Positions 51,458-60,771 of a stretch of DNA of 64,000 nt are shown here, one piece after another. The DNA is taken from IMG/VR virus record IMGVR_UViG_2574180019_000006. One strand, 5' to 3'. How positions within the stretch are numbered: position 1 is the stretch's first letter; each line of letters starts with the position of its first letter. Source of the stretch: a virus. Its lineage: Duplodnaviria; Heunggongvirae; Uroviricota; Caudoviricetes. The notes beneath the pieces are model-generated. The model made no database searches. It saw only the letters and a list, made by a program, of their open reading frames with translations, and was not told where the DNA came from. Both the position numbers and the translations under genes were made by a program.

Positions 51458-52198
51458 ATGAGCCAAATCTTTTTCGATACCATCGACAACGACCAGTACG
51501 ACTTCATGACAGAGTGGAATACCGCTGTTATGGACAAGTGGGTCGCTGAAAACATTGGTTTGTCGCGCTGTAAAGACGAGGCTGAACTCTTCGAGACGAA
51601 GTGGTTTGATTACCGCGACATGCATCCTCTCATGGCCACCTGTCTTTTTACGGAGGCATACAAACGTCAGTACTCAAATATCATGCTGACGCACGGTCGC
51701 GAACACTTTGAAACAGCTCCGTTCACCACCGGGTTAAAACGCCTGCCTTATCAGGAGTTGTCGACTGCCAATAAAACGTCGCTATGGAAAGCACGCCAGT
51801 TTGCGGATCGCTATTGCTGCTCATACGACTACTTTATCTCCACCGTTCTTTCCGCAGCTGCACGACGGCTGTGGGACAAGCTGCCGCGCCCACAGCATTT
51901 GTGGCAGCCAGAACTGATTGAGATATTTGAAGAGAAATTAGCCAGACGCGCAACAACCCGTCTGGATGACTCTCTGGTTAGCTTTAAGCATATGGGAGAC
52001 ATGCAGTTCAACCCGATTCAGGAAAGCTATTTTGAGTGGATTCTGGAGCGTTTGCGCACCATCCCTCGCAGCAAGCGCATACGCGCAATTTTCTCCGCTA
52101 TCTGGCTAATGGAAATCGTTCCAGAGCGCCTTATTTCCGCCCACTTTCCAGAAGAACTGGAAGAAGCACGGCGGTTTATTGATCCCCTATCTAATTAA
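51458..52198 (+). CDS. hypothetical protein (about 246 aa)
   Basis: ATG at 51458 after AGGTGA; track start 51449 is GTG. Confidence 0.55.
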   Translation: MSQIFFDTIDNDQYDFMTEWNTAVMDKWVAENIGLSRCKDEAELFETKWFDYRDMHPLMATCLFTEAYKRQYSNIMLTHGREHFETAPFTTGLKRLPYQELSTANKTSLWKARQFADRYCCSYDYFISTVLSAAARRLWDKLPRPQHLWQPELIEIFEEKLARRATTRLDDSLVSFKHMGDMQFNPIQESYFEWILERLRTIPRSKRIRAIFSAIWLMEIVPERLISAHFPEELEEARRFIDPLSN

Positions 52199-52207
52199 CT
52201 AATACTA

Positions 52208-52224
52208 GAAAACAATTTGTTTAA
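52208..52224. promoter_or_regulatory. AAACAA-T-TTGTTT palindrome upstream of the replicative helicase
   Basis: gaaaacaatttgtttaa, 28 nt ahead of the 52242 ATG. Confidence 0.45.
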
Positions 52225-52241
52225 AAAACAAAGGAAAGCAC

Positions 52242-53582
52242 ATGACCGAACTTTGCCATACAGGACGCGGGCTGTCCGAAGAGTTTGATGAAGATTTCCA
52301 GAACAGACTGACGGCATATTTTTGTCGTGATCACGAGTTTCTTACTCGTGCGGGAGATCTGGTTGTGCCTAGCCAGTTTGCCAATGCGGCCAATGCCATA
52401 TTGGTTAATATGGTTTCGGGCTATTACCGTATGTACAAGAGCGCGCCCTCTTCATCTGCAATTCTGGATATGCTTAAGCGTGCGAAACGCGATAAGACTA
52501 TCCGTGAGGAACTATTCGCCGATGTTGTTGCTGCGTTTAAGCGCATTCTTGCAGAAAAATTGTCTGATACCTCGTACATGGTTGACCAGGTATCCACATT
52601 CGCAAAAAGTGTAGCGTTTGATGATGCTCTGATTAAAGCTGCTGAACTGAAAGAGAAGGGCGACTTTCAGGGGGCGATGGCAATCATGGCCAAGGTTCAG
52701 CAGATAGGCTCGAACGAAGCGACCGGAATCTATGACTACTACACCTCCGCAAGTGAGCGATTGAAAGCGCGTGAATATGAGGCTTCAGAGGAGTATGTAC
52801 CAAACAGTATTACAACTGGACTCCCTCTTCTCGATAGGTTGCTGTACCAAAAAGGCTGGGCAAAGCGCGAAATGGTGCTCTTCATGGGGTTCGCTAAATC
52901 CGGTAAATCGACCGCAATGGGTGAGTTTTCCATAAACGCAACGCTTGCTGGCTACAATGTTCTGTATCTCTCGCTGGAGGTTCACACCACCATTTTATCC
53001 GACCGTTTTGATGCAAGATTGTCGGAGACAGAAATGTCCAAGCTGGTGGAACGGCGCGATGAGGTTCATCGTAAGTTGGCAGAGTTGGGAGCCACGAAGG
53101 GGATTGGTAGTTTGTGGGTGGTTGAGCGTCCGTCAGGAAGTATGTCACCGGCAGATCTGGACCGTATGCTTAACAGCATGAAAGCCAACGGCATGGTACC
53201 TGACATGGTTGTTGTCGACTACGCAGATTTGATGCGTGCCAGTTATGACCTTCGTGATGATCGCGCCAACATTCGTAGTATCTACACCGATTTACGTGCT
53301 CTTTATGACAAGCATAACGTTGCTGGGATCACGGCATCGCAGACAAACCGTGAAGGTGGCGCGTCAGAAGTTGCCACAATGATGCACGCTGCCGACAACA
53401 TCGAAAAAGTACGTATTGCTGACCTGGTAATAACGATCAACAAAACCGAAGAAGAAGAAGCGAAAGGAGAGGCTCGTCTCTACTTTGCCGGTTCACGTAA
53501 CCAGCAGGGAGGGATCAGCATTCGCGTTAAACAAAACCTCGAACAAATGCGCTTCATTGAGCGAATCTTAGACGTTACCTAA
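52242..53582 (+). CDS. DnaB-like replicative helicase
   Basis: RecA-fold C-terminal domain with Walker A GFAKSGKST. Confidence 0.75.
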   Translation: MTELCHTGRGLSEEFDEDFQNRLTAYFCRDHEFLTRAGDLVVPSQFANAANAILVNMVSGYYRMYKSAPSSSAILDMLKRAKRDKTIREELFADVVAAFKRILAEKLSDTSYMVDQVSTFAKSVAFDDALIKAAELKEKGDFQGAMAIMAKVQQIGSNEATGIYDYYTSASERLKAREYEASEEYVPNSITTGLPLLDRLLYQKGWAKREMVLFMGFAKSGKSTAMGEFSINATLAGYNVLYLSLEVHTTILSDRFDARLSETEMSKLVERRDEVHRKLAELGATKGIGSLWVVERPSGSMSPADLDRMLNSMKANGMVPDMVVVDYADLMRASYDLRDDRANIRSIYTDLRALYDKHNVAGITASQTNREGGASEVATMMHAADNIEKVRIADLVITINKTEEEEAKGEARLYFAGSRNQQGGISIRVKQNLEQMRFIERILDVT

Positions 53583-53663
53583 AAAATAAGCGTGGAGAAC
53601 ACCTCCACGCTTGATTCATTGGTGAAACAACTTTTCTTTTGCCAAACCACAAAAGAAAAACAC

Positions 53664-54842
53664 ATGAGCCTTTATGTTATATCAACATTTAGGTTGGTCA
53701 CAATATTGCCTGTTAAAAGTGGAATTATCGTGAGCGAGCTGAAAGAGCTAATTACCGAATTAGATTTTGAACAATGGTTGGATACTGAAGGTATCGTTTA
53801 TCGACGTGGAGGCGTGAGTACTCGCGGTCGTGAAGTGAATATCAAGGAGTGTCCGGTATGTGGCAGCTCCAACTGGAAGGTATATTTCAATCTGACCAGT
53901 GGCGTCGGTAAATGCTTCGCTGGTGATCATCCCGAAGAGATTCAGTTCAATAAGCTGGTCTTCCTCAAGCACTACAGCGGCAAATCACGACGACAGTTCG
54001 AGGAATATGTGCAGAACGCCCTTCTTTCCCAGGGGTGGGCACCAAAGAAAGAAGAGCTAGTGCTTGCAAGCACAGTCGAGTTAGAGGGGCCAGTTGCACT
54101 CCCTCGTCATTACGAGCTTCCTATAGATGGTCGTCTTCCAGACTATCTGGTTGAACGAAACATATCGCCTGAAATGGCAAAGTATTTTGACCTACGATAC
54201 TGCGTCGAAGGCAAGCACGCCTATGTAGATCCGTATACAGATCAGGTTAAAGGACAGATATTCGATATGCGAATACTGATACCGGTTTACGATCTGGATG
54301 GGGTAATGAAGACATTTCAGGGACGAGACATTACCGGTACAGCAGAACGCCGCTACCTCTTTCCTATGCAACTTCCAGCTTCAGGTAAGTTTCTCTACAA
54401 CGGCCATAATGCAGTCGGCAAACAGACTGTAGTTGTCTGTGAGGGGGCGTTCGATGTTATGGGGGTTAAACGAGCTATTTTTGACGAAGAAACATTACGT
54501 GATTACGTGGAACCAATAGGAACGTTCGGGATGCATCTATCTGGTAACACCACTCAGGATGCAGAAGATCAGTTAGGCGCGTTCCTGACGCTCAAGGCGC
54601 GTGGATTACGTAATGTGATCATGATGTGGGATAGTGAAAAGCAAGCTATACGCAACACGATGGCCGCAGCCAGGCGACTGACCAGTATTGGTCTTAATGT
54701 CAAAGTGGCGTGTTTGGGCGAGGAAGGACTCGACCCGGGCGATGCAACGCCAGAGCAAATCATCAAAGCCTATTATCGGGCAAAACCGTATACCAAGCAG
54801 TTGGAGTTACAAAGCAAGGTTTTGGGCATTAAGGCTCTATGA
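53664..54842 (+). CDS. DNA primase (zinc finger plus Toprim-like)
   Basis: CPVCGSSNW...GKCFAGDH zinc ribbon and acidic VVVCEGAFDVMG; start uncertain (53664 or GTG 53730). Confidence 0.7.
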   Translation: MSLYVISTFRLVTILPVKSGIIVSELKELITELDFEQWLDTEGIVYRRGGVSTRGREVNIKECPVCGSSNWKVYFNLTSGVGKCFAGDHPEEIQFNKLVFLKHYSGKSRRQFEEYVQNALLSQGWAPKKEELVLASTVELEGPVALPRHYELPIDGRLPDYLVERNISPEMAKYFDLRYCVEGKHAYVDPYTDQVKGQIFDMRILIPVYDLDGVMKTFQGRDITGTAERRYLFPMQLPASGKFLYNGHNAVGKQTVVVCEGAFDVMGVKRAIFDEETLRDYVEPIGTFGMHLSGNTTQDAEDQLGAFLTLKARGLRNVIMMWDSEKQAIRNTMAAARRLTSIGLNVKVACLGEEGLDPGDATPEQIIKAYYRAKPYTKQLELQSKVLGIKAL

Positions 54843-54859
54843 TAACTATCACCTTTAAA

Positions 54860-54879
54860 ATAAGTAGATGATTACTTAT
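54860..54879. promoter_or_regulatory. palindrome ATAAGTA-gatgat-TACTTAT
   Basis: Same family as the 12102-12119 motif. Confidence 0.45.
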
Positions 54880-54920
54880 CTTTCTGTGAGAATACTTTCA
54901 TCTGTTAGCTAGGAGTTGGT

Positions 54921-55697
54921 ATGAAAGACGAAATTCAGAAATTAGCCTGCGACATCATTGATAAAACTGGTTTAGAAATCAGCGAGAGCAATCGGCTAGA
55001 CATCATTGAAAAAGCCGTAAAAACAGCAATGGATCATATCGCCACTCGTTTGGTCGAGATCCCGCTACCGGGGCTACCTTATCTGAAGGTTAAGTTACAC
55101 GTATGGGGTGAACCTTCTTGTGCACGACGTTCTGCATTAGTTGTTTTTATTAGCAAAGAAAACCCGCTCAGTCTTAAAGTGCAGGTTGGAGCATGGCTTG
55201 ATGGCAGAGTGATCTACACAAATACCGTTTTTTGTCTTTCAAACGACGAAACTATTGAAGCGGCCATTCAAGAAGCAGTTCTAGCAATGCGCAGCAGCGG
55301 TTTGATGAAGAATAACTACGAAGAGTACTTGCGTTCGATAAGTGGTGAAAAGACATTATCTCTGAAAGCAGATTTCGTTACCCCGAAAAATCTGTTGGAA
55401 GTCTTGCTTAATAAAGGGGCTAATGATGCCGTAAATGTAATCAGAGAGAGTGAGTATGCGTCTCTTTGCGACATGTGCAAAAGCCAGTTGGATCTGGTGC
55501 ATATCGTTATTGATGCTGGGAAGGCATGTGATGGCGTAATGGCGGAGTTTGCTGGGAAGATGGTCAGGATTGCTAATGAATTACCGATGATAGAGCAAGA
55601 GGCTAAATCATACGCCACCAATCATGTCACAGAGCTTCTTGTCCCCTATCGCTTAGAAAGCGATCAGCGCAAGATGATTAGCTGGGGAAGTTGGTAA
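54921..55697 (+). CDS. hypothetical protein (258 aa)
   Basis: ORF with RBS; no motif. Confidence 0.5.
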   Translation: MKDEIQKLACDIIDKTGLEISESNRLDIIEKAVKTAMDHIATRLVEIPLPGLPYLKVKLHVWGEPSCARRSALVVFISKENPLSLKVQVGAWLDGRVIYTNTVFCLSNDETIEAAIQEAVLAMRSSGLMKNNYEEYLRSISGEKTLSLKADFVTPKNLLEVLLNKGANDAVNVIRESEYASLCDMCKSQLDLVHIVIDAGKACDGVMAEFAGKMVRIANELPMIEQEAKSYATNHVTELLVPYRLESDQRKMISWGSW

Positions 55698-55752
55698 GCT
55701 CTCAGTGTGTCGTTTTTTACGCAAATAATGATAGGTAAGCACAAGATTATTT

Positions 55753-56235
55753 TTGGCGGTAATTGTGAAAGCTGATTTGTCAAAAATCCCCTCTATTTCA
55801 GGAAATAATGGTTATTCACTTCGTTGTGAGGAAGTAAAGATAAACGGTGAGTCGGCATATTGCAGCTACTCCGTTTGCCAGCACACCATTCTTGCCTTCA
55901 AAGAAAACCGTCTTCCTCGAACTTCATTCCAGTCGTGCGCAACCGCTATCAAAGCAGGCAAATGCAAGGCGTTAAAAATGATGGTTGAAGAGATTCGTAA
56001 AGGAGAATCTCTGTATTTCGAAGATATGACCGCGCTCATTAAGGAGGTTGAAGAACGGAATAAACAAGCCAGAACTTTAAAACGAAAACGTGACAGTGTA
56101 ACGATTAATAGCATGGTTAAGAAGAGCACCACATCACAAACAGCGATCACTGACGTGTATGCGGCGTTGCTTGAAGAAACAACAAAAGAAACACATGGGC
56201 AAATCGATCAACATATGGAGGTAAAACAACAATGA
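55753..56235 (+). CDS. hypothetical protein
   Basis: ORF; start uncertain (TTG 55753 or GTG 55756). Confidence 0.45.
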   Translation: MAVIVKADLSKIPSISGNNGYSLRCEEVKINGESAYCSYSVCQHTILAFKENRLPRTSFQSCATAIKAGKCKALKMMVEEIRKGESLYFEDMTALIKEVEERNKQARTLKRKRDSVTINSMVKKSTTSQTAITDVYAALLEETTKETHGQIDQHMEVKQQ

Positions 56236-57554
56236 AAAAGTTGATCGCACTTAAACATAAGCTGGACGAAATGAAAGCTATGGGAACCAATGCAAAAAAA
56301 GAGGCATTGGCCAACATGGATGACTTTGAACAAAGCATGGTTTCATTGATGCTCAACCCTTTCATCCGTTTTGGGGTAAAGAAATACAAAGTGGCAGAGC
56401 CGCTTAGTGAGTCCATCCCAAGTGACGAAAAAGCCATTGATGTACTGAATAAGCTGGCCTCTCGCGAGCTAACGGGGAACGCAGCAATAACAGCTGTTGA
56501 GTCTATCGTGGCGTCAATGTGCGCCGATGGGCAGGACGTGTTCCGTCGTTTCCTCTTAAAAGACCCGAAAGCAGGTGTTGGGATTAGCCTATGCAACAAG
56601 GTTTTTGAAAATCCCATTCCGAAATTCGAGGTGCAGCTGGCGTCACCGTATAAAGAAAAAGGCGACAAATACCCCTTCAAGCCAAATCCTAAAGCAAAAT
56701 GGCCGATGATTGGCAGTCTTAAGCTCGATGGTTTGCGAGTAATTTGCGAGGTTATTGTTGACGAGGAAGAGGTTAACTTCCTTTCTCGTACTGGTAATCC
56801 AATCACGTCTCTCGATCACCTAAAGCCAGCAATGCTCGAATTAGGCAAACTTTCAGGCCACAAACACATCTTCTTCGATGGTGAAGGAACTGCCGGTTCA
56901 TTTAACCAGTCCGTATCTGCATTGCGCAAAAAGAACGTGCAGGCAATTGGCGCTATTTATCATGTTTTCGACTTCTTCCTACCGGAATGGCGAGCACAGG
57001 CTAAATCCAAAGAGTATGCAAAGACAGGTATGAAGCTGAAAGAGCGCCTGGCTATTCTCGTGGCGTTGTTCAAAAACGATCGCAGTGAAGGCTACACACA
57101 AGACATTCACCTGCATCCGTTCTATATCATCCATAGCCACGAAGACTTCATCGAACGCTTCATGAAACGCCTGGACGATAACGAAGAAGGGGAGATGGGC
57201 AAAGATCCGAACTCTGTTTACGAGTTTAAACGTACCCGCAGCTGGTGGAAGTTAAAAGACGAAGATTCAGAAGATGGTGAAATTATCGACTTTGAGCCGG
57301 GCGACCCGGACTCTGGTTTTGCCAACACACTTGGAAAAATTGTTATTCGTCTTGAAAACGGCGTCATCGTTCGTGCGAGCGGCATTAAGCATAAATATCT
57401 GGATGAGATCTGGAACAACAAAGAGAAGTACCGTGGTCGTATTGTCGAGGTTCATTGTCACGAGAAAACACCGGACGGCAGCTTACGCCACCCACGACTG
57501 AAATGGCCGCGTTGCTTACGCGATACAGAAGATCGAATCGGAGATAAAGAATGA
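56232..57554 (+). CDS. ATP-dependent DNA ligase
   Basis: Motif I KxDG (SLKLDGLR). Confidence 0.7.
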   Translation: MKKLIALKHKLDEMKAMGTNAKKEALANMDDFEQSMVSLMLNPFIRFGVKKYKVAEPLSESIPSDEKAIDVLNKLASRELTGNAAITAVESIVASMCADGQDVFRRFLLKDPKAGVGISLCNKVFENPIPKFEVQLASPYKEKGDKYPFKPNPKAKWPMIGSLKLDGLRVICEVIVDEEEVNFLSRTGNPITSLDHLKPAMLELGKLSGHKHIFFDGEGTAGSFNQSVSALRKKNVQAIGAIYHVFDFFLPEWRAQAKSKEYAKTGMKLKERLAILVALFKNDRSEGYTQDIHLHPFYIIHSHEDFIERFMKRLDDNEEGEMGKDPNSVYEFKRTRSWWKLKDEDSEDGEIIDFEPGDPDSGFANTLGKIVIRLENGVIVRASGIKHKYLDEIWNNKEKYRGRIVEVHCHEKTPDGSLRHPRLKWPRCLRDTEDRIGDKE

Positions 57555-57730
57555 TGCTCGGCTGGATGATTGCATTTTTAGCAGTTGGTTTTTTCATAGG
57601 TATTGTGGTGATGTCCAGTTGCATCAATGACTACATTAAAAGCGGTGTTATAGAAAGACGCGGTCGTATTTATCGCATTGTAGAAATAACCAACACCCTG
57701 AAGGAGATTAAGGATGATCGTATTAAGTAA
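57551..57730 (+). CDS. small membrane protein (59 aa)
   Basis: Hand-translated; ATG overlaps the ligase stop; TM helix then GRIYRIVEIT. Confidence 0.35.
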   Translation: MMLGWMIAFLAVGFFIGIVVMSSCINDYIKSGVIERRGRIYRIVEITNTLKEIKDDRIK

Positions 57731-57929
57731 ACGGGAGAAGGAAACGCTTCATGAAATCAGTAAGTGGCCGGAGTTCCCTGAGTACTGGAAGCCTAAAACG
57801 CGAGCTAAGTTAGAGCGTTTAGGGTTGGTTGCAAACGTTTCTGAAACGTGGTGTTCGGCCAACTACCAGTTAACTGATAAAGGGAAAGTATTGCTACAGC
57901 AATTAGTAGAATCAGGAGCGTTAAAATGA
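57714..57929 (+). CDS. hypothetical protein (71 aa)
   Basis: ATG with AAGGAG RBS. Confidence 0.45.
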   Translation: MIVLSKREKETLHEISKWPEFPEYWKPKTRAKLERLGLVANVSETWCSANYQLTDKGKVLLQQLVESGALK

Positions 57930-58078
57930 TTCCATACATCTCATTAGCTTTTATGGGTGGCTTCCTTATCGGCTTCGGCATCTGTCGTGATTTAATTAAG
58001 CAGGAACTTAAAACCAAAACACTGTGCATCGGAAAGCGTGTGTATCGGGTAGTTCATGAAACAAAGGTGAAAAAATGA
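57926..58078 (+). CDS. small membrane protein (50 aa), paralogous to 57551-57730
   Basis: Hand-translated; TM helix then KRVYRVVHET. Confidence 0.35.
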   Translation: MIPYISLAFMGGFLIGFGICRDLIKQELKTKTLCIGKRVYRVVHETKVKK

Positions 58079-58365
58079 GCAATTTAACTTCTTGGGAATG
58101 GTGGTTGGCCACCTATTTCTTAGCGGCCGGAGTCGCATTCGCCTTTTACGTAGGTCAGTTAGTCGTAAAACTGTTGCTGATTAAATTTGCTAGTCATAAA
58201 CGTATCGATGATGGTCTGTGGCGTCTTGGCACCCTGGTGGAAACTCGCTACGGGCAACTTAAGGAGAACGAAACCATTACTATCCAAGCGAAACGATTCA
58301 CTGCCACCATTACAAGAACACCTAGTCGTAGAGTGGCCTTGATCAAAAAAGTCACAACCGAATAA
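58075..58365 (+). CDS. membrane protein (96 aa)
   Basis: ATG overlapping the upstream stop; N-terminal TM helix. Confidence 0.45.
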   Translation: MSNLTSWEWWLATYFLAAGVAFAFYVGQLVVKLLLIKFASHKRIDDGLWRLGTLVETRYGQLKENETITIQAKRFTATITRTPSRRVALIKKVTTE

Positions 58366-59141
58366 AAACATATTGATAAGTATTTACTTACTTATCTTTT
58401 GTGTATAAGATGACTTTGTTTTCGTTGAGACGCGACTGTTTGAACTTAAATACAAGTGCAAACGAAGAAGTCTATCTGGCAGTAGCCTAATAAGCCAAAC
58501 ACCAGCGAGGTCAGTTTCCAGCCTCGTTACCGAAATGGGACACACTGAGCGAGTGTGATTGCAGAACGCAGGAGGGAACATGAATGTTCCCTCCGATGAA
58601 GTAACAGAATGGGCGGTTGGTATATTTTCAACTCCATATGACTCCCGGATTCTTAGCCACTGACCGCCCATCCTGTTACGTCATTTTGTTCAATTATGTC
58701 GTTTATACTGGGTTAAAAAGCGGCGACGTAGCCCGGCTGGTATGGTTAGCCAGCACACAACGTTGAGGCCATTACATTTTTATCAATTCTAAGGTTCTAT
58801 TCACAGAGATACCGGCGAGCGTTGATATGTAACATGTTGGGCAAACATTCAATCGGAGTAGTGGCCTCAACGTTGTGAAGACAGGATTGTTGTGTAGGTT
58901 TAACCACTGTTGCCATTGGTGCCTGTTTTCACAACAAATGATTCCATACATCACATTGTATAAATTACAAAGTAGGTGCTGTCCTCAGAAACATCATCTA
59001 CTTAAAGATTTAGCCTTCTATTGAGCGAAGTCGAAAACGTCTGGCACTAACGAAAAGTGCAAGTAGCGGTGCGTTTCCTGGCAGAAACTAACACCGCCGC
59101 GATTGGCACTGTTGAGTAATAAATACTGTCAGTGCTGAATT

Positions 59142-59216
59142 GATGGTGTAGCTCAGCGGTAGAGCAGTTGGCTGTTAACCAACTGGTCGGTGGTTCGAAT
59201 CCACCCACCATCGCCA
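59142..59216 (+). tRNA. tRNA-Asn (anticodon GTT)
   Basis: Cloverleaf folded by hand: 7-bp acceptor GATGGTG/CACCATC, anticodon loop CTGTTAA, T loop TTCGAAT, encoded CCA. Confidence 0.85.
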
Positions 59217-59218
59217 AT

Positions 59219-59294
59219 GCCGGTTTAGCTCAGTTGGTAGAGCGCCTGCCTTGTAAGCAGGATGTCAGCGGTTCGATCCCGTTAACCGGCACCA
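59219..59294 (+). tRNA. tRNA-Thr (anticodon TGT)
   Basis: Acceptor GCCGGTT/AACCGGC, anticodon stem CCTGC/GCAGG with loop CTTGTAA, T loop TTCGATC, encoded CCA. Confidence 0.85.
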
Positions 59295-59614
59295 ACACAA
59301 CAGGTAAGAGCATTGGGCGAATCGGCGATACTGACCCACAAGGCCGTAAATCGATAGAGTCAGACCAGTGCTCTTACCGTTGTGAGGAAGTGCAGCTCTT
59401 TGAAGCAACCAGAAGATAAGCATCTGGCTTCACAACACAACGATAAGATCATTACGGTTAATCGTCGTTCATGTGCACAATGACTGGTCGAAAGGTAGTG
59501 ATCTTACCGTTGTGATGAATGCACAGGCTGATGTGCCGCAACTACAGTAGTGCGCGCTTTGCGGGGCTTGCTACAACCCTGTGTCGGAGTTCAGCACCGA
59601 CCATCACAATAGCT

Positions 59615-59701
59615 GGAGAGTAGGGAGCATGGTGCTCAAGCGGTCTTGAAAACCGTCCCATTGCGCAAGCGATGATGGTTCGATTCCATTACTCTCCGCC
59701 A
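59615..59701 (+). tRNA. tRNA-Ser (anticodon TGA), class II with long variable arm
   Basis: Acceptor GGAGAGT/ACTCTCC, anticodon arm CGGT-CTTGAAA-ACCG close to the E. coli tRNA-Ser arm I recall, T loop TTCGATT; D-arm is irregular. Confidence 0.6.
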
Positions 59702-59850
59702 GACACAGCGTTGAGCGGTTTGGCCTTTTAATCAACTCGATTAAGACTCCGCTAACATAAACCAGACCGCTCAACGCTGTGATAGACAATTACGGCAGAC
59801 GTTCTTAACCATAGCTTGCTAACATCCTAGCAACACTTTTTTCAGCGCAA

Positions 59851-59880: not shown

Positions 59881-60771
59881 TTACTGATTATCTAGGTATG
59901 CTGTTAACTCATTTTTAATGATCAGTGAATATTCTAAAATCTCACCTAGTAAATACTCTGCTTTTTTAAAATGCCACCCCATAGAGCCTAATTTTTCTGA
60001 AGGTCTTTCTAACAACATTATAATATCGCTGTCTTGCTCTTTGGCAATGTATTGTCTTATTTCTCTCTCCCAATTATTTCTTGTCTTTCCACTTATTGAT
60101 GATTCATCCAAAACTTTGTTTATAAACTTTTCCGTGTCGGCGAACTTTCCTGCATTATGCACAATTGTATGTCTTAGCAACTCAATTAGAGTGATCTCGA
60201 AACGATAGTTTTTACCTATCTTGTTATTTATTTCTACGTCTCTGAAATTGGGTAATTTTCTTCTAAATACTTTCAGGAATGTTTTTAGTGATTTATTTTT
60301 TATCGCCTCGTAATAGGTTTCCATAGCTCCATTTTTATCAATCTGAACCTTTGGAAATTCACTAGGTGACCAAAAATGGTAATGTATGCTCACTGTATGG
60401 GCATATATTTTCTTAATATAATCTTCAAACAATTCAAAAGCTTCAGTTATAACCCATTGATATTGTTTGTTTTTTAACGCTTCGCATAATTTTATCTTCT
60501 CTGAGATATCTATTGTGCTATGCCCAATTCCAAATGTTGAACCTGTATATGGATTTGAGCATGTATGGTTTGTTAACGTTGTCCCGCATGTTATTGGGGG
60601 GGTATTATTAGCATCTAGAGTTTGTGCGTTTTCAAGTGTATGCTTAAATCGCTTTATGTTGTCTTTCGTTGTAACATTTATATGACCTAACAAGTCACAA
60701 CGCAAAATTATTTCGTTTCTTAATTCAGTGAATATGTTTTCAACAAAAGAACCTAGCGGGTTTTCAATCAT
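59881..60771 (-). CDS. hypothetical protein (296 aa), possibly HEPN-like
   Basis: AT-rich compared with flanking DNA; single Rx4H motif (LLRHTIVHNAG); no recombinase motifs. Confidence 0.5.
   Translation of the reverse strand: MIENPLGSFVENIFTELRNEIILRCDLLGHINVTTKDNIKRFKHTLENAQTLDANNTPPITCGTTLTNHTCSNPYTGSTFGIGHSTIDISEKIKLCEALKNKQYQWVITEAFELFEDYIKKIYAHTVSIHYHFWSPSEFPKVQIDKNGAMETYYEAIKNKSLKTFLKVFRRKLPNFRDVEINNKIGKNYRFEITLIELLRHTIVHNAGKFADTEKFINKVLDESSISGKTRNNWEREIRQYIAKEQDSDIIMLLERPSEKLGSMGWHFKKAEYLLGEILEYSLIIKNELTAYLDNQ

Follow-up and report, generated by a model that had tools for sequence, protein, structure and literature searches.

The DNA considered here, a stretch of 64,000 nucleotides (nt) referred to below as the window, is IMG/VR virus record IMGVR_UViG_2574180019_000006, which its sequence matches identify as an SSU5-like phage-plasmid of Escherichia coli. 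The subject is a run of four short, overlapping genes, P59, P71, P50 and P96, that follows the DNA ligase gene and appears to encode three small membrane proteins and one soluble protein. Region 57400-58500, which holds the run, is 100% identical to one E. coli plasmid, 98.6% identical to Escherichia phage Cyrano and 77% identical to Salmonella phage SSU5. Among plasmids it is matched in 802 records, most of the region being matched in 478 of these; the hosts are Klebsiella, Escherichia, Enterobacter, Salmonella, Yersinia pestis (pMT1-type), Citrobacter and Cronobacter, and the records are mostly non-mobilizable, IncFIB-typed replicons of ~110 kb. The local order is helicase, primase, two unknown genes, ATP-dependent DNA ligase and then the small genes, so that the run is, as read from gene order, the 3' end of the lytic DNA-replication operon (helicase-primase-...-ligase). 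The ligase and the four small genes lie on the plus strand (aa, amino acids; E, expect value of the match to the named family):

56232..57554, + strand: ATP-dependent DNA ligase, 440 aa (Pfam DNA_ligase_A_M, E 3e-13; phrog_114, E 1e-125)
57551..57730, + strand: P59, predicted small bitopic membrane protein, 59 aa; conserved start probably 57554, giving 58 aa (phrog_4381, E 1e-39)
57714..57929, + strand: P71, predicted soluble protein, 71 aa (phrog_4054, E 1e-45)
57926..58078, + strand: P50, predicted small bitopic membrane protein, 50 aa (phrog_6302, E 1e-36)
58075..58365, + strand: P96, predicted bitopic membrane protein, 96 aa (phrog_4507, E 2e-58)

An initial annotation of the window had described three translationally coupled genes, with open reading frames at 57551-57730 (59 aa), 57926-58078 (50 aa) and 58075-58365 (96 aa). 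All three are found at exactly those coordinates, and overlaps and Shine-Dalgarno sequences speak for the coupling; but the chain has four members, as P71 (57714-57929), left out of that account, separates P59 from P50, which are therefore not directly coupled to each other. The same account held that the two peptides had been missed by the open reading frame track. This is only because they fall below the default 60-aa cut-off. SSU5 annotates all four genes (SSU5_045 to SSU5_048) and Cyrano three, P59 being left unannotated there. The run is thus already catalogued, as hypothetical proteins, in relatives; what is new is the paralogy of P59 and P50, the division into core and added genes, the mechanism of deletion and the lytic timing.

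The ligase TGA overlaps the P59 start (TGATG/ATGA), and ATGA overlaps occur at the ligase/P59, P71/P50 and P50/P96 junctions, with a 17-nt overlap at P59/P71; each of the four starts has a Shine-Dalgarno sequence (GGAG/AGGAG/AAGGAG/GGTG) 6-8 nt upstream. The first ATG of P59 reads CTG in relatives, which makes 57554 the conserved start. As each start overlaps the stop before it, translation of the four genes most likely proceeds by ribosome coupling that begins at the ligase.

Comparison with SSU5 and with Y. pestis pMT1-type, Klebsiella and Cronobacter plasmids gives ratios of nonsynonymous to synonymous substitution (dN/dS) of 0.09-0.16 for P59, 0.17-0.29 for P50 and 0.08-0.10 for P96, with changes concentrated at third codon positions; for P71 the ratio against SSU5 is 0.07, synonymous change being saturated in the other three comparisons, and for the ligase it is 0.02 over the same set. 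By this measure all four are genuine protein-coding genes under purifying selection. Conservation in relatives, on which the initial annotation had staked its reading, is borne out by this selection and by the separate PHROG family that each protein has; each match spans the whole protein, and all four families are labelled ‘unknown function’. The complete order ligase-P59-P71-P50-P96 is present in 55 of 75 IMG/VR loci anchored on P96.

Predicted properties of the four proteins

Hydropathy agrees with the claim of one transmembrane helix each in P59, P50 and P96: over 19 residues the Kyte-Doolittle mean peaks at 2.55, 1.84 and 2.00, against 0.33 for P71. Each of the three has a single hydrophobic stretch, at its N terminus, with no lysine or arginine before it and 9-13 after it. 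The positive-inside rule is the established basis for predicting topology from such a distribution, and by that rule all three are predicted to be N-out/C-in inner-membrane proteins with basic cytoplasmic tails. Searches of Pfam, NCBIfam, PADLOC and PDB sequences gave no significant family for any of them.

The helix of P59 covers about residues 3-25 and contains G13xxxG17; its tail reads R39-I-Y-R-I-V-E-I-T47 (nt 57665-57691). That of P50 covers about residues 2-20 and contains G12xxxG16, followed by the tail K37-R-V-Y-R-V-V-H-E-T46 (motif at nt 58037-58063), in which K37, R38, V39, Y40, R41, V43, H44 and E45 are invariant over 19 homologues. Homologues of P59 form 40 clusters, all from Enterobacteriaceae and mostly on contigs of ~100-110 kb; a variant in Salmonella Typhi has RIY duplicated. 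The last residues of P59 (E52, D55 and D56) are invariant and overlap the Shine-Dalgarno sequence and start of P71, so this invariance may reflect dual coding.

A lipoprotein with a periplasmic tail would be another way to read P59, since V-M-S-S-C24 fits the PROSITE lipobox and S22, S23 and C24 are at least 90% conserved in the family. This is most improbable: the region ahead of the helix has no lysine or arginine, the flank behind it is strongly basic, the Cronobacter orthologue has no cysteine there (IMTDRISDY), and the paralogue P50 has no conserved lipobox. The lipoprotein reading was rejected on these grounds.

P59 and P50 are probably paralogues. BLASTP aligns them at E 3e-5, with 31% identity, collinear apart from one single-residue gap, and the two family profiles align by hhalign at E 8e-6 (probability 84%, 48 columns). 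When whole sequences were shuffled the observed score was reached in none of 20000 trials, when helix and tail were shuffled separately in 25 of 20000, and for the tails alone in 372 of 20000, which is moderate support. Both have a helix with GxxxG and a tail with R-[IV]-Y-R-[IV]-V-x-x-T. When the two families are aligned together, no change is seen at the start methionine, R39, Y41 or R42, and hardly any at G13, G17 or T47. The single-copy protein of a distant lineage, described below, matches both P50 (E 2e-12) and P59 (E 1e-5). The initial annotation had called the two ‘clearly paralogous’; the E-values and shuffles uphold relatedness, for which that wording is a little strong. The motif that it gave, G(R/K)(I/V)YR(I/V)V(E/H)(I/E)T, fits P59 (GRIYRIVEIT), but P50 (GKRVYRVVHET) has one extra residue.

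P96 is not a third member of this pair: BLASTP gives no alignment, the hhalign probabilities are 0.5% and 1.5%, and its tail aligns with those of P59 and P50 no better than shuffled sequences do. A likeness seen by eye, of KRFTATITRT in P96 to GRIYRIVEIT and KRVYRVVHET, was thus set aside as having no statistical support. The transmembrane helix of P96 (about residues 9-36) contains G19xxxA23xxxG27; in an alignment of 15 sequences G19 and G27 are invariant and A23 nearly so, all three falling to ~90% once distant members are included. Behind it come a conserved helix (F38...E56), residues 67-80, which are predicted to form a beta-hairpin, and an end that is basic and disordered. RefSeq names homologues of P96 (e.g. 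SSU5_048; 96-101 aa) ‘C-type natriuretic protein’, and the name is widely propagated. Pfam (E up to 1) and NCBIfam give no match of P96 to a natriuretic peptide family, and a literature search found nothing on a ‘C-type natriuretic protein’ on plasmids or on the four-gene run; judged by its sequence, the name seems to be a propagated annotation artefact.

A role in lysis timing, or a holin/antiholin-like activity, might be suspected from the size and single transmembrane helix, which resemble those of some holins and antiholins, and from a weak match of P96 to the holin family phrog_2359. That match (E 0.027) is not significant and covers the hydrophobic segment only. P96 does not group with holins by its surroundings either: its neighbours are replication genes and transfer RNAs (tRNAs), the position is in the replication operon, no endolysin or spanin gene is found in the part of the window examined, from about 48 to 64 kb, and the predicted topology is N-out/C-in with a cytoplasmic domain. 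Such a role is very improbable.

P71 is probably a minimal winged helix-turn-helix (wHTH), putatively DNA-binding. Residues ~31-66 give four independent matches, all to wHTH domains and none at a curated cut-off: Pfam HTH_45 (E 0.16), NCBIfam SSO5209_fam (E 0.012), the C-terminal domain of Csa3 in PADLOC (E 0.0015) and PA1607 (PDB 2f2e, E 0.51). In PADLOC only the wHTH end of the Csa3/CARF models is matched (E 0.0015-0.03). The invariant residues of P71 cluster at W25-E34 and N50-G57, and Cyrano labels the protein ‘putative transcriptional regulator’. One homologue lies outside SSU5-like elements, gp75 of the unrelated Klebsiella phage VLCpiS13f (37% identity; tblastn E 3e-5; phrog_4054, E 6e-9). 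Its gene lies in an early operon that also encodes a ParB-like protein and a DNA methyltransferase; the gene ahead of it is for an acidic ‘anti-restriction’ protein, and the gene behind, which overlaps it, for a 38-aa protein with a C-terminal membrane helix (gp74).

Core genes, additions and lytic timing

The division of the run into two parts emerges from distant P96 representatives (P0121 and P0122, ~31-33% identity to P96), whose loci, with a plasmid of Cronobacter sp. JZ38, are SSU5-like elements with a ligase 75% identical to that of the window. There the ligase is followed by one 56-aa protein, 42% identical to P50 (phrog_6302, E 9e-11) and 29% identical to P59, and then by an orthologue of P96 (35% identity, E 2e-16); within 5 kb there is no homologue of P59 or P71. 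Even at 42% and 35% identity, then, the P50 and P96 genes are adjacent, overlapping and directly behind the ligase, and a P50-like gene in that position is kept in all lineages seen. Since the distant lineage has only the ligase and the P50 and P96 orthologues, P50 and P96, coupled to the ligase, are on this comparison the ancestral conserved pair, or core, and P59 and P71 an addition specific to the SSU5/E. coli/Klebsiella branch.

The way in which P59 is lost can be read from two direct repeats, 16 nt long, identical at 14 of 16 positions and 163 nt apart:

57540..57555, + strand: direct repeat 1, GGAGATAAAGAATGAT, covering the Shine-Dalgarno and start region of P59
57703..57718, + strand: direct repeat 2, GGAGATTAAGGATGAT, covering the Shine-Dalgarno and start region of P71, within the 3' end of P59

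P59 is absent from 13 of the 75 loci, all close E. coli relatives, and exactly the 163 nt between the repeats are lost; the ligase stop is fused to the P71 start, and the matched length is 938 rather than 1101 nt. On one Klebsiella plasmid P50 and P96 are kept, whereas P59, P71 and most of the ligase are gone. In one further case (P0118), a deletion has fused the first ~33 ligase residues to the C-terminal half of P96; this fusion and the ligase-P59-P71 loss are consistent with decay of lytic genes in plasmid-only derivatives.

Beyond these elements little is found. Word-index searches returned enterobacterial proteins only, mostly on contigs of ~100-110 kb and with at least 54% identity over the matched part, and an exhaustive profile search for P96 yielded 18 representatives among 1.84 billion proteins. 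A species-genome scan for distant relatives added contigs of Kluyvera and Buttiauxella only, with one doubtful match in Acidobacteria; tblastn against 50,697 phage records found neither P50 nor P96 outside SSU5-like phages.

When the run is expressed bears directly on what it might do. In Cyrano lysogens, CYRAN_37 to CYRAN_39 are absent from the list of genes at least 5-fold above background (PMC9928086). The ligase, P71, P50 and P96 of Cyrano have log2(FPKM+5) values of 2.3-3.0 in LB medium, that is, 0-3 FPKM (fragments per kilobase per million reads); capsid and terminase genes are similarly low, and the repressor stands at ~90 FPKM and CYRAN_43 at ~7000 (PMC9928086 S1 Table). These data cover P71, P50 and P96, P59 not being annotated there. 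The small-gene run is presumably part of the silent, lytic programme; its silence in lysogeny makes these lytic-cycle accessory genes, not exclusion genes expressed by the prophage. A ‘moron’ role of the latter kind was rejected on the strength of the Cyrano values of 0-3 FPKM (PMC9928086). Of the exclusion or membrane-targeting functions that the initial annotation had put forward, the prophage-expressed form thus becomes unlikely, and what stands is that these are real genes, three of them for predicted membrane proteins.

Exclusion early in lytic growth is a separate matter. The proteins would then block entry of a second phage's DNA at the inner membrane, as T4 Imm and Sp and HK97 gp15 do. 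Known exclusion proteins are similar in size and type to P59, P50 and P96; an inner-membrane location is predicted, and the genes are accessory, fast-evolving and replaceable. Yet a phage-plasmid would profit most from exclusion as a lysogen or plasmid, the state in which these genes are silent; Pfam shows no similarity to Imm or other known exclusion families; the wHTH-like P71 has no role in the model; and the basic tails should, from the predicted topology, lie in the cytoplasm and not in the periplasm. Exclusion in this form is judged unlikely, though by a good deal less than a role in lysis.

The same expression data argue against toxic small membrane peptides for plasmid addiction, of the kind of type I toxins. 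Size and hydrophobicity are comparable, and the element is maintained as a plasmid and has several toxin-antitoxin pairs elsewhere (PMC9928086). However, the genes form a long sense operon with strong Shine-Dalgarno sequences and coupling, no antisense RNA or antitoxin arrangement is seen, Cyrano shows no expression in the plasmid state, and no Pfam toxin family is matched. Addiction ranks with the lipoprotein reading among the least probable explanations.

Sequences around and downstream of the run

In a consensus scan of 52000-59800, no sigma-70-like promoter matches were found, against 11.2 ± 2.8 in dinucleotide-preserving shuffles, which points to a long operon poor in promoters, or to spurious promoters being strongly avoided; the same scan gave no convincing terminator after P96. 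On the 3' side of the run lie ~775 nt without open reading frames and then tRNA-Asn, tRNA-Thr and tRNA-Ser. The stretch just 3' of P96 is 78-81% identical across lineages, and 72-74% in the distant lineage, which is above the small-gene cluster itself. It holds two features:

58376 to ~58950, + strand: structured RNA, tmRNA-like (transfer-messenger RNA), from covariation and a conserved fold
58458-58493, + strand: tag frame within it, ANEEVYLAVA followed by two stop codons (GCA AAC GAA GAA GTC TAT CTG GCA GTA GCC TAA TAA)

The structured RNA begins with the palindrome ATAAGTATTTACTTA (58376-58390), which overlaps a promoter-like TTTACT-N17-TAAGAT (58376-58411) just upstream. The palindrome is kept in all lineages, reading ATAGGTATTTACCTA in the distant one, and looks like an operator over a -35 box. 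The predicted fold has 12 helices with 97.5% of cells paired. Compensatory changes occur in 26 pairs, where shuffles give 11.9 ± 2.2 and slid controls 1-7; as the alignment used to predict the fold also supplied this count, the comparison is biased towards the fold. Across lineages the tag reads AN[DE]xxYLAVA; all codon changes in YLAVA are synonymous, the middle positions vary, and the stop codon lies in a hairpin loop, as in tmRNA helix 5. No tRNA-like domain was found by ARAGORN (default and -ps), Rfam or blastn against E. coli ssrA; the RNA is absent from Rfam 15, and a literature search found nothing that links tmRNA to SSU5-like elements. What SSU5-like phage-plasmids have here may be a tmRNA, either divergent or incomplete, or else a mimic of one. 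In the distant lineage three genes separate the P96-like gene from the structured RNA, so the RNA is not part of the membrane-protein module; as a lead it is probably more interesting than the membrane-protein genes.

Farther along, the gap between tRNA-Thr and tRNA-Ser is ~320 nt (59295-59614), as against 8 nt in Cyrano. Within it are a direct repeat of 23 nt (59367-59389 and 59497-59519) and an inverted one (59303-59316 and 59365-59378); the gap may be an insertion or tRNA remnants. A 296-aa open reading frame on the minus strand (59881-60771) matches phrog_35492, of unknown function, at E 5e-113, with no Pfam or PADLOC match. It occupies a variable spot where Cyrano has other genes, including CYRAN_43, and may be a lysogeny-expressed accessory or defence gene. 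On the Y. pestis pMT1-type plasmid pG8786, caf1R, the regulator of the F1 capsule operon, starts ~500 nt past the P96 homologue, in the place where other elements have the structured RNA and tRNAs.

Possible roles and known systems

One way to account for the run is to suppose that its membrane proteins organise something at the inner membrane during lytic growth. The conserved small-xxx-small motifs in the helices, together with short, basic, beta-strand-prone cytoplasmic tails, make it probable that P59, P50 and P96 assemble into a small hetero-oligomeric membrane complex. During lytic growth this complex would hold a cytoplasmic partner at the inner membrane; candidate partners are the replicating phage DNA, a part of the replisome or the ligase, and the co-encoded, putatively DNA-binding P71. 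Membrane tethering of DNA, replisome or P71 would fit a run that is always coupled to the ligase and lies in a replication operon, tails that are basic and predicted to be cytoplasmic, and a P71-type protein that is found more than once beside a mini membrane protein; on these grounds it is favoured, although only tentatively.

A more specific version, which we regard as doubtful, takes P50 and P96, with P59 in some lineages, as an inner-membrane docking complex whose beta-strand tails capture P71, replicating DNA or the ligase. If true, it would amount to a membrane-anchored replication and repair factory in a Gram-negative phage-plasmid, made from unrelated mini-proteins. A variant would make of it a membrane-sequestration switch for a DNA-binding regulator, and the pair of a P71-like and a mini membrane protein in VLCpiS13f hints at a more general two-part device.

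Several observations weigh against tethering. The small proteins diverge two to three times faster than the ligase, a pattern to be expected of host-interaction or exclusion genes no less than of genes for replication. The clean deletion of P59 in 13 of the 75 loci marks the module as dispensable and cassette-like. In Klebsiella pneumoniae plasmid pKPN1402_2 and phage vB_Kpn_1825-KPC53, moreover, the P50 C terminus and the first ~70 residues of P96 are replaced by an unrelated, tail-anchored protein of 138 aa (C-terminal membrane helix; phrog_34759; weak PADLOC match to LeoC, E 0.008). As the families are confined to SSU5-like elements, there are no informative relatives. The AlphaFold2 models are of low confidence, giving for P59 (merged paralogue alignment) one long helix at a predicted local distance difference test score (pLDDT) of 71, and for P96 a helix at 6-61 and a hairpin at 67-71/76-80 at pLDDT 63; and the translation of the four genes is itself deduced from their sequence.

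In a second reading the mini proteins would serve host takeover or anti-defence. Early in lytic growth they would bind a host inner-membrane protein and inhibit or redirect it, as many mini membrane proteins of bacteria and phages do, the proposed targets being the division, protease, transport or membrane-bound defence machinery. Very small bitopic proteins with tiny cytoplasmic tails, divergence faster than in the adjoining ligase, cassette-like gain, loss and replacement at a fixed locus, and the setting of the VLCpiS13f P71 homologue beside anti-restriction, ParB-like and DNA methyltransferase genes in an early operon are all in its favour. Host takeover would leave the lineage-wide tight coupling to the ligase unexplained, and the membrane proteins have no PADLOC, Pfam or NCBIfam match; in PADLOC this holds for P59, P50 and P96 alike. 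Such a role is possible, and a little less probable than tethering. Fast divergence with cassette-like loss and replacement is what favours host modulation and exclusion; the readings are accordingly ranked with tethering first, then modulation of a host target or anti-defence, then early-lytic exclusion, and with lysis, toxin and lipoprotein as unlikely.

The finding is modest, as small phage membrane proteins of unknown function are commonplace. SSU5-like phage-plasmids are nevertheless common in clinical Escherichia, Klebsiella and Salmonella and in Y. pestis (pMT1), and almost no small gene in them has a known function. What is added to the annotation is that four genes are genuine and selected, that P50 and P96 form the core, and that the run belongs with the lytic programme rather than with lysogenic conversion.

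Among known systems, the nearest are the orthologues in SSU5 (SSU5_045 to SSU5_048) and in pHCM2-, pMT1- and Cyrano-type elements, with the same order, overlaps and position behind the ligase, and amino-acid identities of 71-78% to SSU5 and 97-100% to Cyrano. Nothing of substance differs among the SSU5/Cyrano-type relatives, except that the partial gene table of pG8786 (PLSDB) lists no P50. The exclusion proteins T4 Imm and Sp, HK97 gp15 and P22 SieA are likewise small, accessory, fast-evolving inner-membrane phage proteins; there is no homology to them, and the genes here are silent in lysogeny, coupled to a ligase and accompanied by a wHTH-like partner. The bacterial regulators MgrB, AcrZ, MgtS and SafA are single-helix proteins of 30-100 aa that bind larger membrane proteins, often through small-xxx-small motifs; no sequence relation to them is seen, and the present genes sit in a phage-plasmid operon. 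In Pfam at E up to 1, nothing matched phi29 p16.7 or p1, T4 Imm, or type I toxins such as Hok, Ldr and TisB.

The closest likeness in mechanism is to p16.7 and p1 of phage phi29, small membrane proteins that organise membrane-associated DNA replication. There is no sequence similarity to the small proteins here (no Pfam and no PDB match), the host here is Gram-negative, and the tails of P59 and P50 (~30 aa), for which DNA binding is putative, are far smaller than the DNA-binding domain of p16.7. P96 comes nearer: the genes are small and replication-linked, and the protein, in its low-confidence model, would share with p16.7 and p1 an N-terminal anchor, a helical segment and a small cytoplasmic C-terminal part. 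The likeness to phi29 is best taken as an analogy of mechanism, not as membership of a family.

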